This document shows, piece after piece, positions 3,602 through 60,979 of a DNA stretch of 64,000 nucleotides. This stretch comes from an uncultured Thermoanaerobaculia bacterium. GTDB taxonomy: Bacteria; Acidobacteriota; UBA4820; DSQY01. Position 1 is the first letter of the stretch, and each line of letters begins with the position of its first letter. The notes below the pieces were generated by a model that searched no databases, was not told where the DNA came from, and was given only the letters and a program-made list of their open reading frames with translations. Made by a program: the position numbers and the translations under genes. Where the stretch lies: positions 39,260 to 103,259 of the forward strand of contig CAZDOY010000007.1 of assembly GCA_964507185.1 (NCBI GenBank). The letters are read 5' to 3'.

Positions 3602-4990
3602 TCAGGCGCGTTTCCAGCGGACGCCCTGGGGGGTGTCTTCGAGGAGGATGCCGCGGGCCTTGAGTTCGTCCCGGATGCGGTCTGCCTCGGCGAAGTCGCG
3701 GGCCTTGCGGGCGTCCTTGCGCTTCTGGATGAGGGTCTCCACCTCGGCATCCAGCAAGACTTCGCTGGCGGTTGGAATGCCGAAGACGGCCTCAAAGTCT
3801 GCGAGAAATCCGGCCGTCTCGGCCCGGGCGTCTTCCGTCCACTCGCCCTTGTCCATAGACGTGTTGGCGGCGCGGATGGCGTCGAACAGCGCCGAGAGGG
3901 CCACGGACGAATTGAGGTCGTCCTCGAGGGCGGCCTTGAAGGCGACGCGGTGGGCGCGGATCTCTTCGGCCGTTCCGTCAGCGGCCTCGGAAGCAACCCT
4001 CTCTTCGTCCAGCCGGGTCCTGAAGTCGCGTATGCGGCCCAGTGCGGCCTTGGCGGCCTCCAGCCCGTCGAAGGTGAAATTGAGCTGCTTGCGGTAGGAC
4101 ACCGAGAGCAGCAGGTACCGGATGGCCATGGGGTCGACGCCACGGTCCAGAATGTCCCGGAGCGTGTAGAAGTTGCCCTTTGACTTGGACATCTTCTCCC
4201 CCTCCACCATGAGGTGTTCGGCGTGCAGCCAAAGGCGCACGGGCGCCTTGCCGGTTGCCCCGCGGCTCTGGGCGATCTCGTTTTCGTGGTGGGGGAAGAC
4301 CAGGTCGATCCCTCCCGAGTGGATGTCGAAGACGTCGCCCAGGTACTTGCGGCTCATGGCGGAGCACTCCAGGTGCCAGCCGGGGCGCCCGGGCCCCCAG
4401 GGGCTTTCCCAGGAGGGCTCGCCGGGCTTTGCGGCCTTCCAGAGGACGAAATCCCGCGCCGCCTCCTTCTCGTACAGGTCGCTGTCTACGCGCGCCCCGT
4501 CCAGATTGCCCGAGAGGTCCACGTGGCAGAGCGATCCGTATTCGGGCAGGCTCGCGACGCGGTAGTAGACCGACCCCTGGCTCACGTAGGTGTGCCCGTT
4601 CTTCTCGAGGGCCCGGATCATGCCGATCATGTCCTCGATGTGCTCTGTGGCTCGGGGATAGACGTCGGCGGGGAGGCAGTTCAGCGTCTCCATGTCCTCG
4701 AAGAAGAGGGCCGCGTAGCGGTCCGTGAGCTCGCGAAGACCGACACCCTCGTCGTTGGCCCGCTTGATGGTCTTGTCGTCGATGTCCGTGAGGTTCTTGA
4801 CGTGCAGGACCTCGTAGCCCTCCCACAGCAGGAAGCGCTTGAGGAGATCCTCGAAGAGGAAGGTCCGGAAGTTCCCGATGTGCGCCACGTCGTAGACCGT
4901 CGGGCCACACGTGTAGAGCCTCACTCGCCCCTGCTCCATGGGCTCGAACGGTTCCAAATCGTGTGTCAGTGAATTGGTGAAGCGGATCAT
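3602..4990 (-). CDS. cysS: cysteine--tRNA ligase (462 aa)
   Basis: MIRFTNSLTHDLEPFEPMEQGRVRLYTCGPTVYDVAHIGNFRTFLFEDLLKRF...HIGN and KMSKS (EKMSKSKGN) class-I motifs; the 691-aa ORF in the track carries a spurious Arg-rich N-terminal extension. Confidence 0.9.
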   Translation of the reverse strand: MIRFTNSLTHDLEPFEPMEQGRVRLYTCGPTVYDVAHIGNFRTFLFEDLLKRFLLWEGYEVLHVKNLTDIDDKTIKRANDEGVGLRELTDRYAALFFEDMETLNCLPADVYPRATEHIEDMIGMIRALEKNGHTYVSQGSVYYRVASLPEYGSLCHVDLSGNLDGARVDSDLYEKEAARDFVLWKAAKPGEPSWESPWGPGRPGWHLECSAMSRKYLGDVFDIHSGGIDLVFPHHENEIAQSRGATGKAPVRLWLHAEHLMVEGEKMSKSKGNFYTLRDILDRGVDPMAIRYLLLSVSYRKQLNFTFDGLEAAKAALGRIRDFRTRLDEERVASEAADGTAEEIRAHRVAFKAALEDDLNSSVALSALFDAIRAANTSMDKGEWTEDARAETAGFLADFEAVFGIPTASEVLLDAEVETLIQKRKDARKARDFAEADRIRDELKARGILLEDTPQGVRWKRA

Positions 4991-6012
4991 GGGGTCGTTC
5001 CGAAGGTGCGCCCGACAAGGGGGGCTATGGCGGCGAGGTCCCTGGCGAGGACGGGCAGGTCTTCGATGCGAAGGGCCTGCGGGCCGTCGGAGAGCGCGTT
5101 TTCGGGCGCGGGATGGACCTCCACCATGATGCCGTCGGCACCGACCGCGGCCGCCGCCCGCGCCATGGGCAGGACGAGCGATCGTGTTCCCGTGGCGTGC
5201 GAAGGATCCACGACCACGGGCAGGTGGGTCATTTCCTTGAGGAGGCAGACCGAGGCCAGATCGAGGTTGTTTCTGAGGGAAGGATCGAAGGAGCGGATAC
5301 CCCTCTCGCAGAGGATGACCCGGCCGTTGCCGCCCATGAGGATGTATTCGGCCGCCAGGAGAAACTCCTCCCGTGTGGAGGCGAGGCCGCGTTTGAGCAT
5401 GACGGGCTTGGCCTGCCTGCCTAGGGCCTTGAGCAGGGGGAAGTTCTGCATGTTGCGGCTGCCCACCTGCAGGATGTCGGCGTAGCCGGCGACCAGATCC
5501 AGGTCCTCGCGGTCGAGGACCTCGCTCATCATCATCAGCCCGTGCCGGTTCGCCGCCTCCCTGTGCAGGCGAAGCCCCTCTTCGCCGAGCCCCTGGAAGG
5601 CGTAGGGACTCGTCCTGGGTTTGAAGGAGCCGCCGCGCAGGACGGCGCCCCCGGCGGCCTTCACGGCGGCGGCGCACGTTTCCATCTGGTCGGCATCCTC
5701 GACGGCACAGGGTCCGGAGAAGAGCACGACCGGGGTGTCCCCGACGCGGAAGCCGTCCTGCTCGATCACGGTATTCGCCGACCTGAAATCTCTGGATGCC
5801 AGAAGAAAACTCTCGGTCATGGGCACGATGCGCCGGACGCCGGGCAGTCCGGCAATTTCACGAGGGACCTGTGCGTGCTCGCTGTCGGCGGTCACGAGGA
5901 CGTCGTAGTGTTCGCCCTTTTCCCTCCGGGCGCCTATGCGGCGCTCCAGCAGGTACTTTTTCAGGGTCTCTGCTTGATCCGGAGTGATGGACTGTTCCAG
6001 AACGATGACCAC
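4987..6012 (-). CDS. 3-deoxy-7-phosphoheptulonate (DAHP) synthase, class I-beta with N-terminal ferredoxin-like regulatory domain (341 aa)
   Basis: ...VVLFSGPCAVEDADQMETCAAAVKAAGGAVLRGGSFKPRTSPYAFQGLGEEGL... typical DAHPS/KDO8PS TIM-barrel; about 70-aa N-terminal extension as in Thermotoga-type DAHPS; 4-nt ATGA overlap with cysS. Confidence 0.75.
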   Translation of the reverse strand: MVIVLEQSITPDQAETLKKYLLERRIGARREKGEHYDVLVTADSEHAQVPREIAGLPGVRRIVPMTESFLLASRDFRSANTVIEQDGFRVGDTPVVLFSGPCAVEDADQMETCAAAVKAAGGAVLRGGSFKPRTSPYAFQGLGEEGLRLHREAANRHGLMMMSEVLDREDLDLVAGYADILQVGSRNMQNFPLLKALGRQAKPVMLKRGLASTREEFLLAAEYILMGGNGRVILCERGIRSFDPSLRNNLDLASVCLLKEMTHLPVVVDPSHATGTRSLVLPMARAAAAVGADGIMVEVHPAPENALSDGPQALRIEDLPVLARDLAAIAPLVGRTFGTTP

Positions 6013-6225
6013 GGTTCCTCCGTCAAATTTTTGATTCTAATGGTTTCGTCCTGCATTTGGCAACAGGACGGCGGGAAGGATATTTCGCCTGCGGCGTGCT
6101 GAAGAGAGGGGCGGGCGGGTGGGTCAACACGTGATCCAGTGGCCAGGTGATTCAGCGATCGAGTGATCGGGGCGCGGGGTCGCATCCAGTTCATGCGAAA
6201 GGCCTCGGACCCCACGGGCCGCCGG

Positions 6226-6254
6226 TTGACAACCCCCCGCGCCCTGATTAGACT
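6226..6254 (+). promoter_or_regulatory. candidate sigma-70 promoter (TTGACA-17-TAGACT) for the zinc-ribbon/FHA gene
   Basis: TTGACA at 6226-6231, 17-nt spacer, TAGACT at 6249-6254, followed by GGAGG SD and GTG 6275. Confidence 0.35.
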
Positions 6255-18906: not shown

Positions 18907-19170
18907 AGTGACCGAGTGGCCGGGTCGCGGCCATATCTTCGAAGAAAGAAAGCGGGAATAGGTGAGCAGGTAACCTAGTGAGCAGGTCGCGTGCTGACCT
19001 TCGAAGGTTCGTCCCCGGCCGCCCTTTCTTCTTCTTGACCCTCAGCCGTTCGGTCTGAGGCTTCGGAGAAGTGAAACTCCCTGCTTCCCTGCCGTCCTTC
19101 AATCCGCAATCCCAAATCCCAGTTCCCAAGTATCCATAGGGCCTTGGCCCTTAGCCCTTGGGAAAAAACC
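18907..19170 (+). repeat. intergenic repeat family, copy A (longest; contains internal tandem gtgagcaggt x2)
   Basis: modules agtgaccgag / CCTTCGAAGG palindrome / aatccgcaatcccaaatcccag / gaaaaaacc shared with copies at 34325-34541 (inverted), 40370-40500, 50061-50211. Confidence 0.5.
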
Positions 19171-25255: not shown

Positions 25256-25597
25256 TTAGGAGCCTCGGGGTCTGCGCGACTTGGGCTTTGCGGCGCGTTT
25301 GCCGGGCTCGTCCGCCTCGGGAGGTTGCGGGATGATGCCCTCCACCTGGTCGTAGGGCATCGGGATGACGTGGACCGAAACCAGGTCTCCCACGCGCCGT
25401 GCCGCGGCCGCCCCGGCGTCCGTGGCCGCCTTGACGGCGCCCACGTCCCCCCTGACCATCACCGTGACGTACGCGCTGCCGATGTATTCCTTGCCGACGA
25501 GGACCACCTTTGCGGCCTTCACCATGGCGTCGGCCGCCTCGATGGCCGCTACCAGCCCGCGCGTCTCGATCATGCCCAAGGCTTCCCGGTTAAGCAT
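25256..25597 (-). CDS. bacterial microcompartment shell protein, BMC-H (PduA/EutM/CcmK family, PF00936), 113 aa with basic C-terminal tail
   Basis: [70 protein letters not shown] is roughly 70-75% identical to PduA as I recall it. Confidence 0.9.
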
Positions 25598-25654: not shown

Positions 25655-25717
25655 TAATGGGAGGCGGTAGAGGTAAACCAACAATCCAGCGTCCAATTCC
25701 GAAATCAACCACCCTTG

Positions 25718-25835: not shown

Positions 25836-26426
25836 ATGCGCGAAGGGGGCCGGCAAGACCCGAACTCTAAAGCATTGGGTTTCACGCTGCTAGAAGTCCT
25901 TGTCGTGGTCGCGATCCTGGGGCTCATCGCAACCATTCTCACGGTGGCCGTCAGCAACGCGATCAAGAGGCAGCGGCTGGACACGGCCGCCCAGCAGTTG
26001 CGCAGCTTCATGGACAGAGCCTACGTGTCGACGACACAGACGGGAAACGGCATATTCGTTCAGATCGGCGCGGAGCGGACGGACGGGTCCAGGCTCGTGA
26101 GGCTCATAGAGGACAGCAATTCGAATAAGACGCTCGACAGTACGGACCAGGTCCTGGCGACGGAAACCATAACGAGTGATCTCGTCCTGTCCAATTCCTC
26201 CACCGCGGCAACCGCCTGGCCCGTTATCGGCGGCTCTCTGGTGATGCTCTGCGACTCAATGGGGCGGGCCATCAATCCGAACACGGGCCTCCAGATTTCC
26301 CAGGACCTTACGATTTCATTGACGCACACCGACATGACGGGATCCGGTACGTTAACCCCAAGGCTTCGGTACGACATCCGTCTGTACCCACTGTGGAGCC
26401 CGTCTTTGACCGAGGTGAGACTATGA
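25836..26426 (+). CDS. type IV pilus minor pilin / pseudopilin (FimT/GspH-like) with prepilin N-terminal methylation motif
   Basis: ...KALGFTLLEVLVVVAILGLIATIL... class III signal peptide. Confidence 0.7.
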   Translation: MREGGRQDPNSKALGFTLLEVLVVVAILGLIATILTVAVSNAIKRQRLDTAAQQLRSFMDRAYVSTTQTGNGIFVQIGAERTDGSRLVRLIEDSNSNKTLDSTDQVLATETITSDLVLSNSSTAATAWPVIGGSLVMLCDSMGRAINPNTGLQISQDLTISLTHTDMTGSGTLTPRLRYDIRLYPLWSPSLTEVRL

Positions 26427-34324: not shown

Positions 34325-34541
34325 GGTTTTTTTTCGAGAACGAAACAAGGCATCGGGGAAGTTTGGGACTTGGGATTTGGTATTGCGGATTTGTAATGCG
34401 GCAGGGGAGATGCCTTCGCAAATTGCGACCTGAAGGCCGCTCCCGCAGCATGAGCGGTCGGCGGTCCCCTGTCTGCCGTCGTTCGCCGGACGCAGCCCGC
34501 AGAGGTCCTCACGCAACTCGATCACCGGATCACTTGATCAC
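34325..34541 (-). repeat. intergenic repeat family, copy B (inverted orientation) in porin / TPR-protein divergent region
   Basis: RC contains gtgatcaagtgatccggtgatcgag ... cctgccgcattacaaatccgcaataccaaatcccaagtcccaaac ... gaaaaaaaacc; about 80% identical to copy A tail. Confidence 0.5.
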
Positions 34542-34601
34542 TCTAAGACTGTCGCAGGAGCCGCGGCCGGTGATAAACTGTTTCCAAAAGGGAGGTCCCT
34601 C

Positions 34602-40237: not shown

Positions 40238-40369
40238 GGAGCCCTCCGACCCGCGCCAGTTTACCATAAAGTCCTGTTGCCGCCGGGGTCCTTCGCCTGT
40301 TGGACGGGACTCCGGGTGAGCGGCCGATCCAGCCGCCTGTATGCGCGTCGGTGCCATGTCCGGTGTCCG

Positions 40370-40500
40370 GTGATCGGTGCTCAGTTCGGGGGTGGACCTT
40401 CGAAGGTTCGCCCCTCTGTCGTTCTATGTAGCGTCCGATGGCAATCGGCTGCAGCGAAGGACGACCCTCTTCCGTCTTCAAATCCCAAATTCGAAATCTC
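40370..40500 (+). repeat. intergenic repeat family, copy C in PASTA / accD divergent region
   Basis: gtgatcggtgctcagttcgggggtggaCCTTCGAAGGttcgcccc ... tcaaatcccaaattcgaaatc. Confidence 0.5.
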
Positions 40501-40572
40501 CATCGGTCCTCTTCCGGAGGCCATTTGTCGCCGTCCAGCCTTTTCGTTATACTCCCCAGGGAGAATTTGAAG

Positions 40573-49993: not shown

Positions 49994-50025
49994 CCTCCTT
50001 ACTCAACTTCCTTCCTCCAACCATC

Positions 50026-50052
50026 GAGGGCCTCAGGGCCCTCTCTTTTTTT
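50026..50052 (+). terminator. rho-independent terminator after lpxC
   Basis: gagggcctcagggccctc hairpin then tctttttttat. Confidence 0.55.
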
Positions 50053-50060
50053 ATGACCAA

Positions 50061-50211
50061 GTGATCGAGTAAAGAGTGACCGAGGCGGGGGGACCGCCTT
50101 CGAAGGCTGTACGTCTGTGCGTGAGTAAGGGAGCAGGTAAGTGCGGCGGGGGAGGACCTTCGAAAGTTTGCCACCTGCCGCAGTTAAATCCCAAATCCCA
50201 ATTCCGAAATC
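50061..50211 (+). repeat. intergenic repeat family, copy D between lpxC terminator and topA 3' end
   Basis: gtgatcgagtaaagagtgaccgaggcggggggaccgCCTTCGAAGGctg ... gggagcaggtaag ... gaccttcgaaagtttgcc ... aaatcccaaatcccaattccgaaatcg. Confidence 0.5.
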
Positions 50212-50215
50212 GCCT

Positions 50216-52591
50216 TCAGCCCTTCTCTTCGATCGGTTCGCTGTACTTGCAGGCCTTTTCGGGGCACGCCTTGACCGGCCCGCTCTTCGTCTGGCGTTCG
50301 ATAAGATAGGGACTGCCGCAGGTGGGACAGGGCCCCGGCAGAGGTTTCGACCAGGAGATGAAGTCGCACTCAGGGTAGCCCGTACAGCCGTAGAAAAGCT
50401 TCCGCCTCTTGGTAAAGCGCTTGGCCAAGGGCTTTCCGCACTTGGGACACGGTGTTTCCACCGTCTCCTTCTGGATGTATTTGCAGGTAGGGTAGTTGGA
50501 ACACGCGACAAATGGGCCATAGCGGCCGTGCTTCTTCACGAGGTTCGAGCCGCATTCCGGGCATTTCTCTTCCAGGGGCTCGTCTTTGGCCACGACCACG
50601 CTGCCCGATTTGTCCTTTCGGATCTTCAGCGTGTATTTGCATTCGGGGTAACGCTCGCAGGCCAGAAATGCGCCGTAACGCCCCTGGCGTACCGCCATGG
50701 GGCTCCCGCACTTTTCACACGTTTTGGCGTCCTCGGGCACCTCGGGAGGCTTCTCGTCGGGCAGGGGGCGGGTTCCCTTGCATTCCGGGTAACCGGAACA
50801 GGCGAGAAAGCGTCCGAATCGGCCCATCTTGAGGACCATCGGGCGTCCGCACTTGTCGCAGACTTCGTCGGTCGCCTGGCCCTCCTTGCGGAGGTCCACC
50901 ATCTCACCCTTGGCCGCTTCGAGCTCCTTGTGGAAGTCCGTCCAGAACCGCTCCAGCAGTTTCTGCCGGTCCATGGCCCCGTTTTCGACTTTGTCGAGGT
51001 TCTCTTCCATGGCGGCCGTGTAACCGATGTCGAACAGCGCGGGGAAGTGCTTGATCAGGATCTGGCTGACCAGCATGCCCATGTCGGTGGGCACGAGGGC
51101 ACCCTTTTCCTTCTCCACGTAGGTTCGTTCCTGGATCGTCGAGATGATGGTCGCGTAGGTGGAGGGCCGTCCGATGCCGTTCTCCTCCAGGGCCTTCACG
51201 AGGGTCGCCTCGGTGTAGCGGGGGGGCGGCTCGGTGAACTTCTGCTCCGACTTGAGATCGAGCAGCGTCAGACTCTCGCCCTGTGTGAGGGGAGGTAACA
51301 CGCCCTTCTCGTCGTTTTCCTCGACCTCGTAGACCGCGAGGAACCCCTGGAAGCGGCAGACGGAGCCAGAGGCGCTGAACAGGGCGTCGCCGCACGCCGC
51401 CTGTACCTTCGTGGCGTCGAAAAGGGCGTCCGCCATCTGGCTCGCAACGAACCGTCGCCAGATCAATCGGTAAAGGGCGAACTCGTCGCGGCCCAGATAG
51501 GGTTTCACGCTTTCGGGCGTGCGTCCCGCATCGGTGGGGCGGATCGCCTCATGGGCGTCCTGAGCCGCCTTCTTCGGCGCGTACAAACGGGGCTTCGGAG
51601 GAAGGAAGTCTCCGCCGAAGGTTTCCTGCACGAACGCCCTGGCCGCATCCACCGCCTGGGGTGAGACGCGGGTCGAATCGGTCCTCATGTAGGTGATGAG
51701 TCCCACCGTCTCCCCTCCGGCCAGGTCGACGCCCTCATACAGGCGCTGGGCCACGGACATGGTCTTCTTCACCGGAAACTTCAGAAGCCTGGCCGCCTCC
51801 TGTTGCAGTTTGCTCGTGATGAAAGGCGGAGACGGGCTCTTCTTCTGCTTCTTCTTTTCCAGCTTCGCGACGGACCAGTCCCGGTCTTTCAGGTGCGCCA
51901 GCAACGCATCGTTTTCTTCCGCGTTGCGTATCTGCGACTTCTTGCCTTTCCACTGGGTGAGCCTGGCGTCGAAAGGCTTGGCCCGCCCACCTTCGCCGCA
52001 CAGCGAGGCGGTTACGGCCCAGTATTCTTCGGGTTGAAAGGCCCGGATGGTGTCCTCCCGCTCGCAGATCATCCTGAGGGCCACGGTCTGTACGCGTCCG
52101 GCCGACAGGCCCTTGCGCACCTTGTCCCAGAGCAACGGCGAAATCTGGTATCCGACGAGGCGGTCGATGATGCGGCGGGCGATCTGAGCGTTGACCTTCT
52201 GGGGGTCCACCTCTATGGGGTGGGCGACGGCGGCCTTGACCGCGGAAGAAGTAATCTCGTGAAAGAGGACGCGCTCGATGGGTTTGCCCATCTCTTTCAA
52301 GAGCTCTGAAAGGTGGTAGCAGATGGCCTCTCCTTCCCGGTCGGGGTCTGCCGCAAGGAGGATGGTGCCGGCTCTGGAGGCGGCCGTATGGATCTTGCTC
52401 ACGACGCTCTTCTTCGCGGGGAGAACGACGAAGGTGGGACGGAAATTCTTGTCCACGTCCACGGCCAGTTTATTGCCGGGAAGGTCTCGCACGTGCCCCA
52501 TGGAGGCCATGACGGAAAAGCCCTTGCCCAGGTATTTCTGTATGGCCCTTGCTTTGGCCGGCGATTCGACGATCAGGAGTGTGTCTGCCAT
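50216..52591 (-). CDS. topA: DNA topoisomerase I with multiple C-terminal C4 zinc ribbons
   Basis: MADTLLIVESPAKARAIQKYLGKGFSVMASMGHVRDLP... TOPRIM; repeated CxxC...CxxC ribbons at C-terminus. Confidence 0.9.
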   Translation of the reverse strand: MADTLLIVESPAKARAIQKYLGKGFSVMASMGHVRDLPGNKLAVDVDKNFRPTFVVLPAKKSVVSKIHTAASRAGTILLAADPDREGEAICYHLSELLKEMGKPIERVLFHEITSSAVKAAVAHPIEVDPQKVNAQIARRIIDRLVGYQISPLLWDKVRKGLSAGRVQTVALRMICEREDTIRAFQPEEYWAVTASLCGEGGRAKPFDARLTQWKGKKSQIRNAEENDALLAHLKDRDWSVAKLEKKKQKKSPSPPFITSKLQQEAARLLKFPVKKTMSVAQRLYEGVDLAGGETVGLITYMRTDSTRVSPQAVDAARAFVQETFGGDFLPPKPRLYAPKKAAQDAHEAIRPTDAGRTPESVKPYLGRDEFALYRLIWRRFVASQMADALFDATKVQAACGDALFSASGSVCRFQGFLAVYEVEENDEKGVLPPLTQGESLTLLDLKSEQKFTEPPPRYTEATLVKALEENGIGRPSTYATIISTIQERTYVEKEKGALVPTDMGMLVSQILIKHFPALFDIGYTAAMEENLDKVENGAMDRQKLLERFWTDFHKELEAAKGEMVDLRKEGQATDEVCDKCGRPMVLKMGRFGRFLACSGYPECKGTRPLPDEKPPEVPEDAKTCEKCGSPMAVRQGRYGAFLACERYPECKYTLKIRKDKSGSVVVAKDEPLEEKCPECGSNLVKKHGRYGPFVACSNYPTCKYIQKETVETPCPKCGKPLAKRFTKRRKLFYGCTGYPECDFISWSKPLPGPCPTCGSPYLIERQTKSGPVKACPEKACKYSEPIEEKG

Positions 52592-57988: not shown

Positions 57989-58019
57989 TCAGATTTACCG
58001 TTCCTGGAATCTTCCCGGA

Positions 58020-59093
58020 TCAGCCCTTCGTGCCTCCGCCATGCATCTTAAGGAACTTGGCGCGCTGTCCCATGAGGTACTTGTCCTCCGGTTTCTGTTT
58101 GAGGGCCCTGTCGATGGTCGCGACGGCCTCGTCCTTGTTGCCCAGCTTGTAGTAGACCTCGGCCAGCGTGTCCAGGATACCCGGGTCGTCGTGGCTGATC
58201 GCGACGGCCTTGCGGGCCGCCTCGGCGGCCTTGTCCAGCTCGAGGCCCTGTTCGGCGCAGTGCCAGGCGTAGTCGTTGAGGAACCCCGGATCGTCCTGGC
58301 GGTTGGGCATGGCGGCGTGGTACAGACCGAGGTAGTCCGACTCGGCCTGCTTTTTCGCCTGGGCGTCCGCGGCGTGCTTGATCGCACCGCGATAGTAGCG
58401 CGAGAGCGATGAAAAGGCTTCCTCCGAGGCGTCCGATTTCCCCCCCTGGGCGAGCTTACTCAAAACTTCGACGCCCTTGGGCGGGTCCGTACTCAGGAGG
58501 GCCTCGCCGCGGATGAGCGCCAGCGACGTTTCCAGCTTGGCGTCGCTCTTCTTGTCGGCGGTCCGGGCCTTGTCCACCCAGGCCAGGGCCTCCTTGGCGT
58601 CGCCCCTGTCAAGATATTTCTGCGCGATATCCCGGCGGATGTCCGGTCCCGCGTCGGCCGCCGAGCGGCTTACCAGGTCGCCGAGGGTGTCGACGCCGTA
58701 GGTGTAGGCGAGGAGGGTGCGCATCCAGTCGGACCTGTTGTCGTATCCTATGATGCGGTCTATTTCCTCGCCCTTGGGCGAGATGACGATTGTCGTGGGA
58801 ATGCCCTTCACGTGGTAGGCCTTGGCGAGGGCCTGCACCTCGGGTTTGTCCACGTTCTGGCGGATCATGACGTTTGACTGCGAAAGACGACTGACCATCG
58901 ATGGCGTAAGGACTTCACGGTCCAGTTTTTGGCAGGACCCTCACCAGTCGGCGTAAAACTTCAGGATGAGATTGTCATCCTTGGCCTTAGCCTCGGCCTT
59001 CGCCTGGTCGAACGTGCCCTTGTACCAACCCGTCCCGGCGGCCATCAGGCCGATGGGCAGGGCGAGCAAGAGGGCGGCAAGAAATTTTTTCAT
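58020..59093 (-). CDS. periplasmic thioredoxin-fold + TPR protein with in-frame UGA at first position of CxxC (candidate selenoprotein, UxxC), about 357 aa
   Basis: Minus-strand reading from ATG 59093: MKKFLAALLLALPIGLMAAGTGWYKGTFDQAKAEAKAKDDNLILKFYADW-TGA-GSCQKLDREVLTPSMVSRLSQSNVMIRQNVDKPEVQALAKAYHVKGIPTTIVISPKGEEIDRIIGY... continuous frame across TGA at 58941-58943; GAGGAGG SD; hairpin ggtcc-N11-ggacc immediately 3' of UGA. Confidence 0.6.
58919..58940 (-). ncRNA. candidate SECIS-like hairpin immediately downstream of in-frame UGA
   Basis: UGA-g-GGUCC-ugccaaaaacu-GGACC on the mRNA strand. Confidence 0.3.
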
Positions 59094-59218
59094 GGAACCC
59101 TCCTCACGGTGAAGTACAAAGATTTACCACAAATAGACGCTGGAAGCCAGTTCGGGAGGGAGGGGGGACGATTTGGGATTTGAAAGGCGGCTCGAGGCGG
59201 GTCTTCGGAGGGCGACGT

Positions 59219-60979
59219 CTAATCCCCTGCTTCCGGCAAAACGATCGCAAAGCCCGCTCCGCCCAGTTCGGACTCTACGGCCTCCAACCCGCCGCCGTGC
59301 TCGCGGATGATCTTGCGGGCTATGGCGAGACCGAGCCCCGTCCCTCCGGGCTTCTGGCTGGTGAAAGGCGTAAAGAGGTTCTGGCGGACTTCCGCGTCGA
59401 GCCCGGGGCCGTTATCTTCCACCGTGATGGTCACGCGCTTCTCCGCACTCCGCGCGGAGAACCTCACTCGGCCGGAGCCATCGTCGGAAGCACCCGAAGC
59501 TTCCAAGGCGTTCCGCGCCAGATTCCGGATGGCCCGTCCGAGCGTCTCCCAGTCCGCTTCCACGGTCAGGTCCTCAGGACAGTCCACCTCCACGGAAACC
59601 TCCGGCCACTCGTGCCCGGCCATCTCCGCTTCCTCCCTCAGCAGGTCCGCCAGCCTGCACGTCTCCCGGACGACGGGCAGGGGACGGGCGAAGAAGAGGA
59701 GGTTGTTCACGACCTGCGCGAGGCGCTCGGCCTCCTCGCGGAGGCCGGTGAAGTGCCTCTCGTCCAAAAGGGCTGGCACGTCCTGTTCCAGCAATTTGAG
59801 GTGGGCGGTCATCGTATTGAGGCTGTTCCGGACCTCGTGGGCCACGCCCGCGGCCACCTCCCCCAGGCGCGTCAGGGCTTCCCGTTCCACGAGGGTCCTC
59901 TGCATCGTGTAGACCTCGGTCTGGTCGCGGAGGATGAGCAGGTAGCCTCGTAACTGGTGGAGAAGGTTGTATAGGGGGATGCCTACGACCTGGAGGAGCG
60001 TACCCGGTGCCCCGGGCACCTCTTCCTTGAGGGCCAGCGCCCTGCTCTGCCTCACTTCCTGCAGGGCCGCCAGGGCCTCGGGGCGCACCCCGAGCAGGCC
60101 CATGCCGGTGTCGCCCAGACGCGGGACCTCCGTAAGCCCGAGTAGCCTCCGGGCGGCGGCATTGACGCCGACGAGCCGGTCCTCGTTGTCGAACCGGAGG
60201 TATCCCGCCTCGAGATTCGCGCAGAGCGCTTCCGCCATGCCCTCCACGTCCTCGGCCCGCTGTCTCTCCCGCCTGTGGGCGGCCTCCAGTTCCCCGGTCC
60301 TCTCCCTGAGCTCGGCCAGCGTTTTCTGAAAGAGCGCCACCAACTGCTGGGTGGAGTCTCCCCCCGGGCCCGAAGGAAGGACTTCTCCCGCCTCCACCAG
60401 GACCCGCTCGACCCCTCGGCGGGATCGCACCAGCTTGAGGCCCAGCCAGAAAAGGAAGGTCAGAAGCGCCAGCCCCGCCGCGGATACCATGGCCGCCGCA
60501 AGGGCGAAATGCGCCTGTACGCGTGCGAAACCTGGGGCGTCAAAGACGATGACGAGCCGCCTCCTGTCGGCAAAAGTGCGCGTGTACACCAGGCCCCCGC
60601 GGCTTGCGGTCACAGAGTCCCCTCCCGTCGGCGGTGCGTAGGTCTTCGGTGGAGGCGCGAAAGGAGGGGCGGACCAGAGGACGTGATCGCCGAGGAGGAT
60701 GGCGGCCTGCCTCGGCTTCACCGCCGCGCCCTGGGGCGGCCTGCCGCCGTAGAGAGCTTCGTCCAGGCTCTCACCCCTCTGCGGGATGGGCCTGTGCTCG
60801 ATGCGCGCCACCGCCGCGCGCCCCCCCGCGAGCACCGCCCCGCGAACGGACCTTCTCTGGGCGCCCTGGTACCTGGCGAGGGCCGCCAGGCTCCACAACG
60901 CCGTCAGGAGCAGGAGCGCGCAGAGTGCGGCCAAGGCCAACGTGAGACCCTTCTTCAGGCGGTCCCGTTGTGAGTTCAT
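59219..60979 (-). CDS. sensor histidine kinase (periplasmic sensing domain, PAS, HisKA, HATPase_c), 586 aa
   Basis: MNSQRDRLKKGLTLALAALCALLLLTALW (TM1) ... second TM ... LGEVAAGVAHEVRNSLNTM (H-box) ... VEDNGPGLDAEVRQNLFTPFTSQKPGGTGLGLAIARKII (G1/G2); ATGA overlap with pilD. Confidence 0.8.
   Translation of the reverse strand: MNSQRDRLKKGLTLALAALCALLLLTALWSLAALARYQGAQRRSVRGAVLAGGRAAVARIEHRPIPQRGESLDEALYGGRPPQGAAVKPRQAAILLGDHVLWSAPPFAPPPKTYAPPTGGDSVTASRGGLVYTRTFADRRRLVIVFDAPGFARVQAHFALAAAMVSAAGLALLTFLFWLGLKLVRSRRGVERVLVEAGEVLPSGPGGDSTQQLVALFQKTLAELRERTGELEAAHRRERQRAEDVEGMAEALCANLEAGYLRFDNEDRLVGVNAAARRLLGLTEVPRLGDTGMGLLGVRPEALAALQEVRQSRALALKEEVPGAPGTLLQVVGIPLYNLLHQLRGYLLILRDQTEVYTMQRTLVEREALTRLGEVAAGVAHEVRNSLNTMTAHLKLLEQDVPALLDERHFTGLREEAERLAQVVNNLLFFARPLPVVRETCRLADLLREEAEMAGHEWPEVSVEVDCPEDLTVEADWETLGRAIRNLARNALEASGASDDGSGRVRFSARSAEKRVTITVEDNGPGLDAEVRQNLFTPFTSQKPGGTGLGLAIARKIIREHGGGLEAVESELGGAGFAIVLPEAGD

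Follow-up and report, generated by a model that had tools for sequence, protein, structure and literature searches.

Intergenic spacers in a 64,000-nt stretch of the genome of an uncultured Thermoanaerobaculia bacterium (Acidobacteriota; contig CAZDOY010000007.1, positions 39,260 to 103,259; hereafter, the window) contain copies of a composite repeat, 130–270 nt in size, that probably represents a lineage-specific, non-coding mosaic family resembling the bacterial interspersed mosaic elements (BIMEs) and BOX elements of other bacteria. Four full copies are present, A (18907-19170, +), B (34345-34541, inverted), C (40366-40502, +) and D (50061-50211, +), along with two partial copies, r1 (6131-6240) and r2 (59167-59225, −), and a degenerate tail alone at 25681-25707. 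Modules follow a like order in A–D, with a period-8 head, (GTGATCNR)n, leading into one or two GC-rich hairpins centred on TTCGAA, and these into a tail of heptads. Direct reading of the sequence bore out the copies, modules, order and coordinates proposed for these four in an initial annotation. All copies are intergenic, as that annotation also held, based on gene calls using GC content at third codon positions (GC3) and Pfam matches of flanking genes, and about half of the larger intergenic spacers in the window are taken up by the family. Results here support an interspersed repeat like REP sequences (repetitive extragenic palindromes), organized as a BIME- or BOX-like mosaic.

A one-genome-per-species scan with the 19-mer AATCCCAAATCCCARTTCC returned at least 105 loci, and those among the matches listed fell into two classes. 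One, spread over many phyla, comprised heptad arrays that were bare or inverted, together with a number of matches due to chance or to coding sequence. The other comprised dozens of loci from two Acidobacteriota metagenome-assembled genomes (MAGs) only, CAVRTJ01 (MFD02923.bin.1.102) and JBJKRE01 (Bin_51), which are built like the window copies and share with them the GTGATC octads, CTTCGAAGG and the tail. Loci of the two MAGs do not overlap each other, and L047 overlaps the window at the DAHP synthase gene only (68% identity). Together they hold 50 copies in 192 kb (36 in 120 kb and 14 in 72 kb), in loci chosen by motif; this high copy number and extragenic location are as in REP sequences. 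A 105-nt nhmmer profile was built from 17 MAG copies, using no window copies, and gave six matches at five sites in the window, all of them intergenic:

34356-34418: copy B, E = 1.2e-12
50143-50211: copy D, E = 3.5e-12
19086-19141: copy A, terminal module, E = 8.7e-9
40443-40502: copy C, E = 5.5e-6
59170-59221: partial copy r2, E = 8e-6
18972-19026: copy A, first core, E = 5e-5

The same profile had zero matches (E ≤ 0.01) among 80 metagenome contigs from more distant relatives (664 kb in total; AccD 56%–81% identical to that of the window). Hence, the family is real and lineage-restricted. The r2 match confirmed an inverted relic previously placed near 59150-59214; r1 was not detected by the profile. 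Among viral contigs, the 27-mer tail had no match, and the 18-mer core had one chance match lacking an adjoining tail. No description of the family emerged when the literature was searched by keyword and by sequence, the latter giving only unrelated eukaryotic primers and sequences.

Two of the motifs are enriched in the window compared to shuffled sequence. At ≤3 mismatches, the heptad motif AATCCCAAATCCCA was found 11 times versus 3.9 ± 2.0 in shuffles, with 10 of the 11 inside named copies, and GACCTTCGAAGGTTCG was found five times versus 1.0 expected in shuffles, exclusively in A, C and D. Exact CCTTCGAAGG was found three times, again only in A, C and D. The octad motif GTGATCGAGTGATC was not enriched (10 versus 6.4 in shuffles, ≤3 mismatches) and therefore takes its meaning only from its position beside other modules; GATC frequency, considered as a further clue to the octads, was uninformative (349 versus 219 expected in the window). 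The lack of octad enrichment could be taken to mean that the similarity is due to chance or to low complexity of GC-rich intergenic DNA, particularly as heptads and octads are simple tandem repeats, and the 19-mer heptad pattern also matches unrelated arrays and coding sequence in many phyla. This explanation is refuted, and its probability is negligible, given profile E-values down to 1e-12 versus zero matches in the 664 kb of controls, one copy conserved at an orthologous position (see below), and a 30-nt non-repetitive core (CTTCGAAGGCCCGTCCCC.GCCG..TTC) common to the window and two other genomes. The last of these also runs counter to similarity being limited to short low-complexity runs, which the initial annotation had named as grounds for rejecting a family.

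Comparison of 59 copies, each listed with 130 nt of upstream sequence, showed that the sole constant part is the terminal module, while the parts upstream vary. This module of approximately 60 nt forms the 3′ end of the element and closes with a short run of heptads that are C-rich, or G-rich when read on the opposite strand. It reads CCTTCGAAGG-CCCGnCCCC-nGCCGy-nnTTCAAATCCGC-AATCCCA-AATCCCA-ATTCCCAAAT in the alignment of window and MAG copies, or, in other notation, CTTCGAAGG-CCCGTCCCC-GCCG-TTCAAATCCGC-AATCCCA-AATCCCA-ATTCCCAAAT. Upstream parts draw on a library of GTGATC octads, GTGAGTAG or GTGAAGGG octads, GTGTCTA heptads, a GCGCC-N4-GGCGCGGTGA hairpin, TAGCCCTT repeats, CCTCCC repeats, and GTAG-headed palindromes (GTAGCGGCCG...CGGCCGCTAC). 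Inside the window, library modules include a GTAG hairpin in C (40428-40455) and the TAGCCCTT module in A. Two terminal modules often face outward in the MAGs as an inverted pair of 180–260 nt, and the window has no such pair.

In copies A–D, the head units are GTGATCGA, GTGACCGA and degenerate GTGAGCAG/GTAACCTA, and the heptad tail reads AATCCGC AATCCCA AATCCCA (A/G)TTCC (e.g., GATTTGGGAATTGGGATTTGGGATTGCGGATTT). The tail units AATCCCA and AAATCCC correspond to GGGATTT on the opposite strand. Tandem Repeats Finder recovered period 7 at 19108-19129 (A) and 50186-50211 (D), and the period-8 array of B. Hence, the tails consist of tandem, intergenic 7-nt units with a G-tract, as in heptamer simple sequence repeats. 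The features of the full and partial copies are as follows:

18907-19170, +: copy A, with the mprF stop (19182, −) on one side and the pyk promoter/start (18836, −) on the other
18907-18921, +: octad head of A
18962-18990, +: degenerate octads of A
18972-19026, +: TTCGAA hairpin/core of A, exact CCTTCGAAGG at 18998-19007
19043-19064: hairpin private to A
19086-19141: terminal module of A, heptads at 19101-19128
19140-19170: TAGCCCTT-type module of A, with an A-run
34345-34541, −: copy B, in the divergent spacer of a TPR gene (start 34602, +) and a 446-aa gene (start 34249, −)
34516-34543: octad head of B, period 8, 3.5 copies, followed by a long, imperfect, GC-rich interior
34356-34418: terminal module of B, with variant centre TTGCGAAGG and heptads at 34364-34391
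40366-40502, +: copy C, in the divergent spacer of a PASTA gene and accD
40366-40380: short octad head of C
40389-40414: hairpin of C, GGGGTGGACC-TTCGAA-GGTTCGCCCC
40428-40455: GTAG-headed, REP-like hairpin of C, GTAGCGTCCGATGGCAATCGGCTGCAGC
40443-40502: terminal module of C, with a short tail
50061-50211, +: copy D, with the lpxC terminator (50026-50053) on one side and the topA stop (50216-50218, −) on the other
50061-50085: octads of D
50097-50106: exact CCTTCGAAGG in hairpin 1 of D
50121-50143: degenerate octads of D
50143-50181: hairpin 2 of D, CCTTCGAAAG
50186-50211: heptad tail of D, ending 4 nt before the topA stop codon
6131-6240, +: partial copy r1, octads GTGATCCA GTGGCCAG GTGATTCA GCGATCGA GTGATCGG, then a G-rich arm and TGCGAAAGG core, lacking a heptad tail
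59167-59225, −: partial copy r2, core CCTCCGAAGACCCGCCTCGAGCCGCC and short tail TTTCAAATCCCAAATCG
25681-25707, +: degenerate tail, AACAATCCAGCGTCCAATTCCGAAATC

These features modify several details of the initial annotation. The self-complementary 10-mer reported twice in D is exact once, and its second instance, CCTTCGAAAG, carries one mismatch. The 'gtgagcaggtaa' module is present, but rather than being separate it is a degenerate run-on of the period-8 head (GTGAGCAG GTAACCTA GTGAGCAG) that aligns with GTGATC octads in an orthologue. A terminal gaaaaaaacc, described as a shared module, was found solely in A and B and does not characterize the family. The relic at 6131-6240 has the head and a core but neither a tail nor a profile match. 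Similarly, the tail copy reported at 25683-25707 does share a 14-mer with D (three matches versus 0.55 expected) but is a degenerate tail only, matching that of D at 19 of 27 positions, which makes it a weak candidate for family membership. A pilin gene has its palindrome and promoter downstream of this tail. The 240-nt spacer holding the degenerate tail and this palindrome (CGTTACCGAATGTAACG) separates a divergent pair of genes, encoding a BMC-domain (microcompartment shell) protein (25256-25597, −) and a type IV pilin with an N_methyl motif (25836-26426, +).

Copies occupy only harmless sites, whether the interval from a stop codon to the signal that follows it or the DNA lying just upstream of promoters. 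The tail faces a gene 3′ end in 20 copies, mostly 0–25 nt from the stop codon, and a gene 5′ end in 27 copies, at distances of 42–283 nt; genes at the MAG loci were called with a simple GC3 heuristic. A strong -35/-10 pair begins 11–30 nt past the tail in approximately 10 of the 27 copies facing 5′ ends. In the window, the accD promoter (TTGTCG-17-TATACT, 40525-40553) starts 25 nt past the tail of copy C, and r1 is directly followed by the TTGACA-17-TAGACT promoter of an FHA-domain gene. We considered whether a promoter forms part of the element, but the distance from tail to -35 box varies from 4 to 68 nt, and the promoters therefore belong to the genes. Partial copy r2 lies directly past the stop of a histidine-kinase gene (59219) and 74 nt upstream of a thioredoxin-like gene. 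Overall, neighbours of the window copies (pyruvate kinase, MprF, TPR protein, PASTA protein, AccD, LpxC, TopA, DAHP synthase, FHA protein and histidine kinase) have unrelated housekeeping functions.

Tail placement follows the rule for G-rich heptamers in Xanthomonas and Nostoc, with the nearest open reading frame (ORF) on the 5′ side of the G-rich strand, and the array either within tens of nt of a stop codon or upstream of a gene on the non-coding strand. In the family described here, the G-rich strand begins 0–25 nt past a stop on the coding strand, or else the C-rich strand is found upstream of a gene. Repeats of GGGAATC in Xanthomonas and GGGGA(C/T)T in Nostoc/Anabaena are placed near stop codons or upstream of genes, at positions that are conserved between species, with variable length and often as inverted pairs (Rehm et al. 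2015, PMC4692102). Four is the preferred unit number in Xanthomonas, and quadruplex formation was seen in vitro, although no function was found (PMC4692102). By analogy, the terminal module may be a functional gene-boundary signal acting through a non-B structure (a G-quadruplex, an i-motif or an unstructured C-rich tract), where GGGATTT/GGGAATT heptads past stops or before promoters would stop or protect transcripts or modulate initiation, as has been suggested for the heptamers of Xanthomonas and Nostoc. The shared placement rule is in keeping with such a signal, as are the greater conservation of the tail than of other parts between species and the palindromes located exactly between stop codon and Shine-Dalgarno/ATG inside an operon on a Chloroflexota-labelled contig (described below). 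Yet GGG tracts number three in the tail of A, two in B, one in C and two in D (the MAG consensus has three plus GCGG), compared to the four or more required for quadruplex competence. With only one to three tracts in window tails, formation of an intramolecular quadruplex is doubtful. Moreover, function in the published systems is not established either. Overall, we regard a non-B boundary signal as unlikely.

The Chloroflexota-labelled MAG contig (L073) contains four palindromes of approximately 80 nt, (GGGATTT)n-loop-(AAATCCC)n, within 8 kb, in an operon of small same-strand genes:

1424-1513: palindrome; a possible stop codon abuts the array
2471-2557: palindrome filling the gap from a stop codon to the Shine-Dalgarno/ATG of the next gene
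4154-4243: palindrome
5683-5771: palindrome filling a gap of the same kind

Their placement suggests translational coupling or RNase processing. The palindrome arm is almost identical to the tails of the window elements, and the contig may be mis-binned. A 32-nt arm (AAATCCGM-AATCCCAAATCCCAATTCC-CAAAT) is nearly identical in Acidobacteriota and Chloroflexota-labelled contigs. A quite unlikely, speculative extension is that the terminal module and the related bare heptad palindromes of other lineages constitute a conserved gene-boundary 'punctuation' read by host machinery. Sited a few nucleotides from stop codons, or filling the interval from a stop codon to the following Shine-Dalgarno/ATG, it could set transcript 3′ ends, serve as an RNase processing site or couple the translation of adjacent cistrons. 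If so, the 32-nt arm would reflect function or horizontal spread of a working module.

The initial annotation had also raised the possibility of a family of small RNAs. If transcription along the '+' strand of the element yielded small RNAs or cis-acting RNAs, a strand bias in folding would be consistent with this, and copies C and D do fold better on '+' than on '−' (−47.7 versus −40.8 kcal/mol and −54.3 versus −40.5 kcal/mol, respectively; z approximately −1.9). The perfect 10-bp stem of copy C also contains two G-U pairs. However, z-scores across window copies ranged from −1.9 to +0.9, and the apparent strand specificity of the hairpin suggested by G-U pairs in C and D did not hold over 30 family copies. 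Among 660 positions around TTCGAA in these copies, 219 were Watson-Crick pairs, 81 G-U, 76 A-C and 284 other, and the two strands had equal mean folding energies (−16.8 versus −17.1 kcal/mol). TTCGAA lies in a perfect 10-bp stem in C and in a long imperfect one in D; pairing over the 30 copies is poor, and the 5′ arm of the hairpin is missing from many. Because many copies lack this arm and G-U pairs show no asymmetry, the terminal module is conserved as sequence rather than as RNA structure. Searches against Rfam 15 likewise gave no match at the gathering threshold, and nothing at E ≤ 5 on any element in the window or in eight MAG loci; no tRNA or tmRNA was found in the window. No promoter precedes and no terminator follows any window copy, with nearby signals belonging to neighbouring genes (e.g., the lpxC terminator and accD promoter listed above). 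Finally, each of the four possible arrangements of an element and its neighbouring genes is represented, with no fixed orientation. Transcribed RNA elements are hence very improbable.

That the terminal module is conserved in sequence, but not in how it pairs, would fit dispersed sites recognised by a single DNA-binding protein (for instance gyrase, a global regulator or a nucleoid-associated protein) reading the TTCGAA palindrome and/or the heptads. Both IHF and gyrase bind BIMEs in Escherichia coli. In line with protein binding, the 10-bp palindrome CCTTCGAAGG lies inside the terminal module, many tails are 11–30 nt upstream of a -35 box, and function of this kind would be independent of orientation. 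Nonetheless, approximately 40% of tails abut stop codons of convergent genes, where regulation of a promoter makes no sense, and the neighbours are functionally unrelated. The 7-bp spacing of the direct repeats is also out of phase with the DNA helix, and there is no candidate protein. We therefore assign a low probability to a common binding protein.

Comparisons of orthologous sites illustrate how individual copies change. A Bin_51 contig (L026) is syntenic with the window over 14.3–21.4 kb (77%–81% nucleotide identity) and carries an element in the pyk/mprF spacer in the same orientation as copy A. The pyk promoter side and the start of the octads are conserved between the two, and the tail, which is the best conserved part between species, is identical over approximately 33 nt. 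The interior is rearranged, with approximately eight octads in L026 versus two in A. In a second relative (L108; AccD 81% identical), synteny extends across the sites of both C and D, and neither site has an element. A different perfect heptad array, (TCCCTGC)x3.6, was observed at the topA stop of L108 (7038-7062), in the place of copy D, and copy A of the window likewise carries CTCCCTGCTTCCCTGCC immediately ahead of its tail. Different heptads appear to occupy equivalent positions in related genomes. Two copies in a further contig (L036) are approximately 100% identical over 170 nt of a GTAG-hairpin interior and differ in their heptad tails. The recently copied part is therefore the GC-rich interior, and the heptad arrays behave as flanks. 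Across these sites, therefore, one orthologous copy was retained with a change in unit number, copies were gained or lost between more distant relatives, and one interior was recently copied.

Variation is also evident among strains. Contigs from other metagenomes that are 99.8%–100% identical to the window cover A–D, and contigs from two other metagenomes (L001 and L002) carry a second haplotype of D. This haplotype has seven shared differences within 113 nt (50087-50199) versus approximately four in the other 6.4 kb, a contrast for which a pooled Fisher test overstates the independence of the differences. Several of the differences bring D closer to the family consensus: CCTTCGAAGG is restored by 50165 A>G, for instance, and the changes at 50134/50139 produce GTAGGTGAGTG. 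The patch can be read, from these sequences, as one conversion-like event. Four short-read contigs from other samples (L189, L195, L196 and L197), elsewhere 99.8%–100% identical to the window, end in or beside copies A and B (window positions approximately 19061 and 34571), as expected for a dispersed repeat. The family appears to fragment assemblies of this organism, and short-read assemblies are probably broken by it.

Results regarding mobility separate the two parts of the initial proposal of a REP/MITE-like element. A REP-like mosaic stands, as the element is multi-copy, intergenic, present in both orientations, lineage-restricted and modular. Classification of the window copies as MITEs (miniature transposable elements with inverted repeats) does not. 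The elements are like MITEs in size (130–270 nt) and in being non-coding, intergenic and multi-copy, and the outward-facing pairs of the MAGs add to the likeness. Window copies, however, have no terminal inverted repeats, the GTGATC octad start and AATCCCA heptad end not being complementary. No consistent direct repeat indicative of target-site duplication was found around 20 inverted pairs, the boundaries of which blur into heptad arrays, and TA was present at both ends in only two of the four L073 palindromes. Lacking inverted ends and target duplications, the window copies are not classical MITEs. The only ORF located between outward-facing modules was an unrelated 160-aa gene (L047), rejected as a transposase, and the window and sampled loci yielded no related autonomous insertion sequence.

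We propose that the GC-rich hairpin units of the mosaic family would be copied, probably by a transposase acting in trans, for which a Y1/RAYT-type enzyme is the obvious candidate (none was seen in the 64-kb window or the 8-kb pieces of the two MAGs). Heptad and octad arrays would grow and shrink by replication slippage, copies may be homogenised by gene conversion, and selection would leave copies only between functional signals. Any effect on the host would most likely be structural, with a 3′-end hairpin or array shielding or terminating the transcript upstream of it, or with the element serving as a spacer or insulator before promoters. Several observations weigh against a mobile mosaic of this kind. 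Window copies are 65%–80% alike and show no sign of recent movement, neither a target-site duplication nor a sharp 5′ boundary could be defined, and a phmmer search with an IS200 TnpA sequence, itself a weak test, had no match among 7,615 ORFs of the window and sampled loci. The conversion patch in D is a single event, and distances to start codons are approximate because of the GC3-heuristic gene calls. In addition, strong conservation of the terminal module across three genomes, together with its tight placement at stop codons, could mean a host function as opposed to selfish persistence.

Among known systems, the family is best likened to BIMEs or BOX elements and its tail to heptamer simple sequence repeats; only some of the hallmarks of REPs are present. 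As in the heptamers of Xanthomonas and Nostoc (STRR), the unit is 7 nt long, with a GGG tract followed by A/T (here GGGATTT, GGGAATT and GGGATTG), and arrays are intergenic, often in inverted pairs, with the G-rich strand running away from the nearest ORF. Related species keep the arrays at the same positions but differ in their length and sequence. Unlike those heptamers, the array here is short (3–5 units, with one to three GGG tracts in the window), differs in unit sequence and phylum (Acidobacteriota), and forms one end of a composite, fused to a conserved, non-repetitive, GC-rich core centred on TTCGAA, to REP-like hairpins and to period-8 arrays. Similarities to the REPs and BIMEs of enterobacteria and pseudomonads include high-copy, extragenic, GC-rich imperfect palindromes combined with short motifs into mosaics, often in head-to-head pairs and frequently at gene 3′ ends. 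By contrast, the conserved unit here is asymmetric and approximately 60 nt long instead of a 20–40-nt palindrome, its ends are microsatellite-like arrays, and no RAYT gene was seen in the sampled loci.

Di Nocera et al. (2013, PMC3733652) described GTAG and CGTC superfamilies of REPs, as well as Acidobacteria in which inverted repeats flank Y1 transposases. Some modules here do carry a GTAG head as in GTAG REPs (GTAGCGTCCG... in C; GTAGCGGCCG...CGGCCGCTAC in MAGs), borne on the secondary hairpin of C (40428) and on many MAG modules, but the main TTCGAA hairpin has no GTAG. CGTC is present inside the core (GGCCCGTCCCC), where its position and the stem and loop sizes differ from those described in PMC3733652. 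A likeness to BOX is also apparent, in that the element is asymmetric, modular, intergenic and non-coding, with conserved end modules, a variable number of internal units and no known dedicated transposase. BOX elements of Streptococcus pneumoniae consist of boxA-boxB(n)-boxC, with modules of 45–60 nt. Here, the arrays are of 7–8-nt units, and sequence and host phylum are unrelated; the repeat belongs to neither the E. coli nor the pneumococcal families.

Further observations were made beside copies of the family and elsewhere in the window. In the Bin_51 MAG (L062, 100-470), two element copies of 143 nt stand in tandem after a tmRNA-like 3′ end (...GGTTCGAATCCCTCCCTCTCCGCCA). The final 15 nt of that end (CCCTCCCTCTCCGCC) recur at the start of the second copy, which could reflect a tandem or att-like duplication. 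ARAGORN gave no tmRNA call in L062, as the contig start truncates the gene. Upstream of copy D, the lpxC 3′ untranslated region (49994-50053) includes 39 nt after the stop (CCTCCTTACTCAACTTCCTTCCTCCAACCATCGAGGGCC) with one difference from L108, even though the genes are only approximately 75% identical. The stem of the terminator that follows is kept in L108 and its loop differs. This region is C/U-rich with several CCUCC (anti-Shine-Dalgarno-like) motifs, and it may be a regulatory 3′ untranslated region or a source of a 3′-derived small RNA. Elsewhere, a candidate selenoprotein gene (58017-59093, −) encodes a secreted thioredoxin-fold/TPR protein. Its in-frame TGA (58941-58943; ...FYADW-TGA-GSCQKL...) is at the first Cys position of a CxxC motif, and, with Cys substituted, the codon falls inside a Pfam Thioredoxin match (residues 35-122, E 2e-12). 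Past the TGA lies a hairpin (GGUCC-N11-GGACC), a possible SECIS element.

Acidobacteriota abound in soils and sediments, yet, to our knowledge, their non-coding DNA has hardly been described. Since bacteria are well known to carry modular intergenic repeats, a further family is not a major surprise; of most interest are the conserved terminal module, the stop-codon placement rule and the strain-level conversion hot spot. If the mosaic interpretation is true, the family links REP-like GC-rich hairpins and G-rich heptamer arrays, which have so far been described separately, and creates local hot spots of variation, as in the D haplotype. It would also extend the unexplained rule of heptamer arrays beside stop codons, known from Xanthomonas and Nostoc, to a third phylum, making the rule easier to test by comparison.

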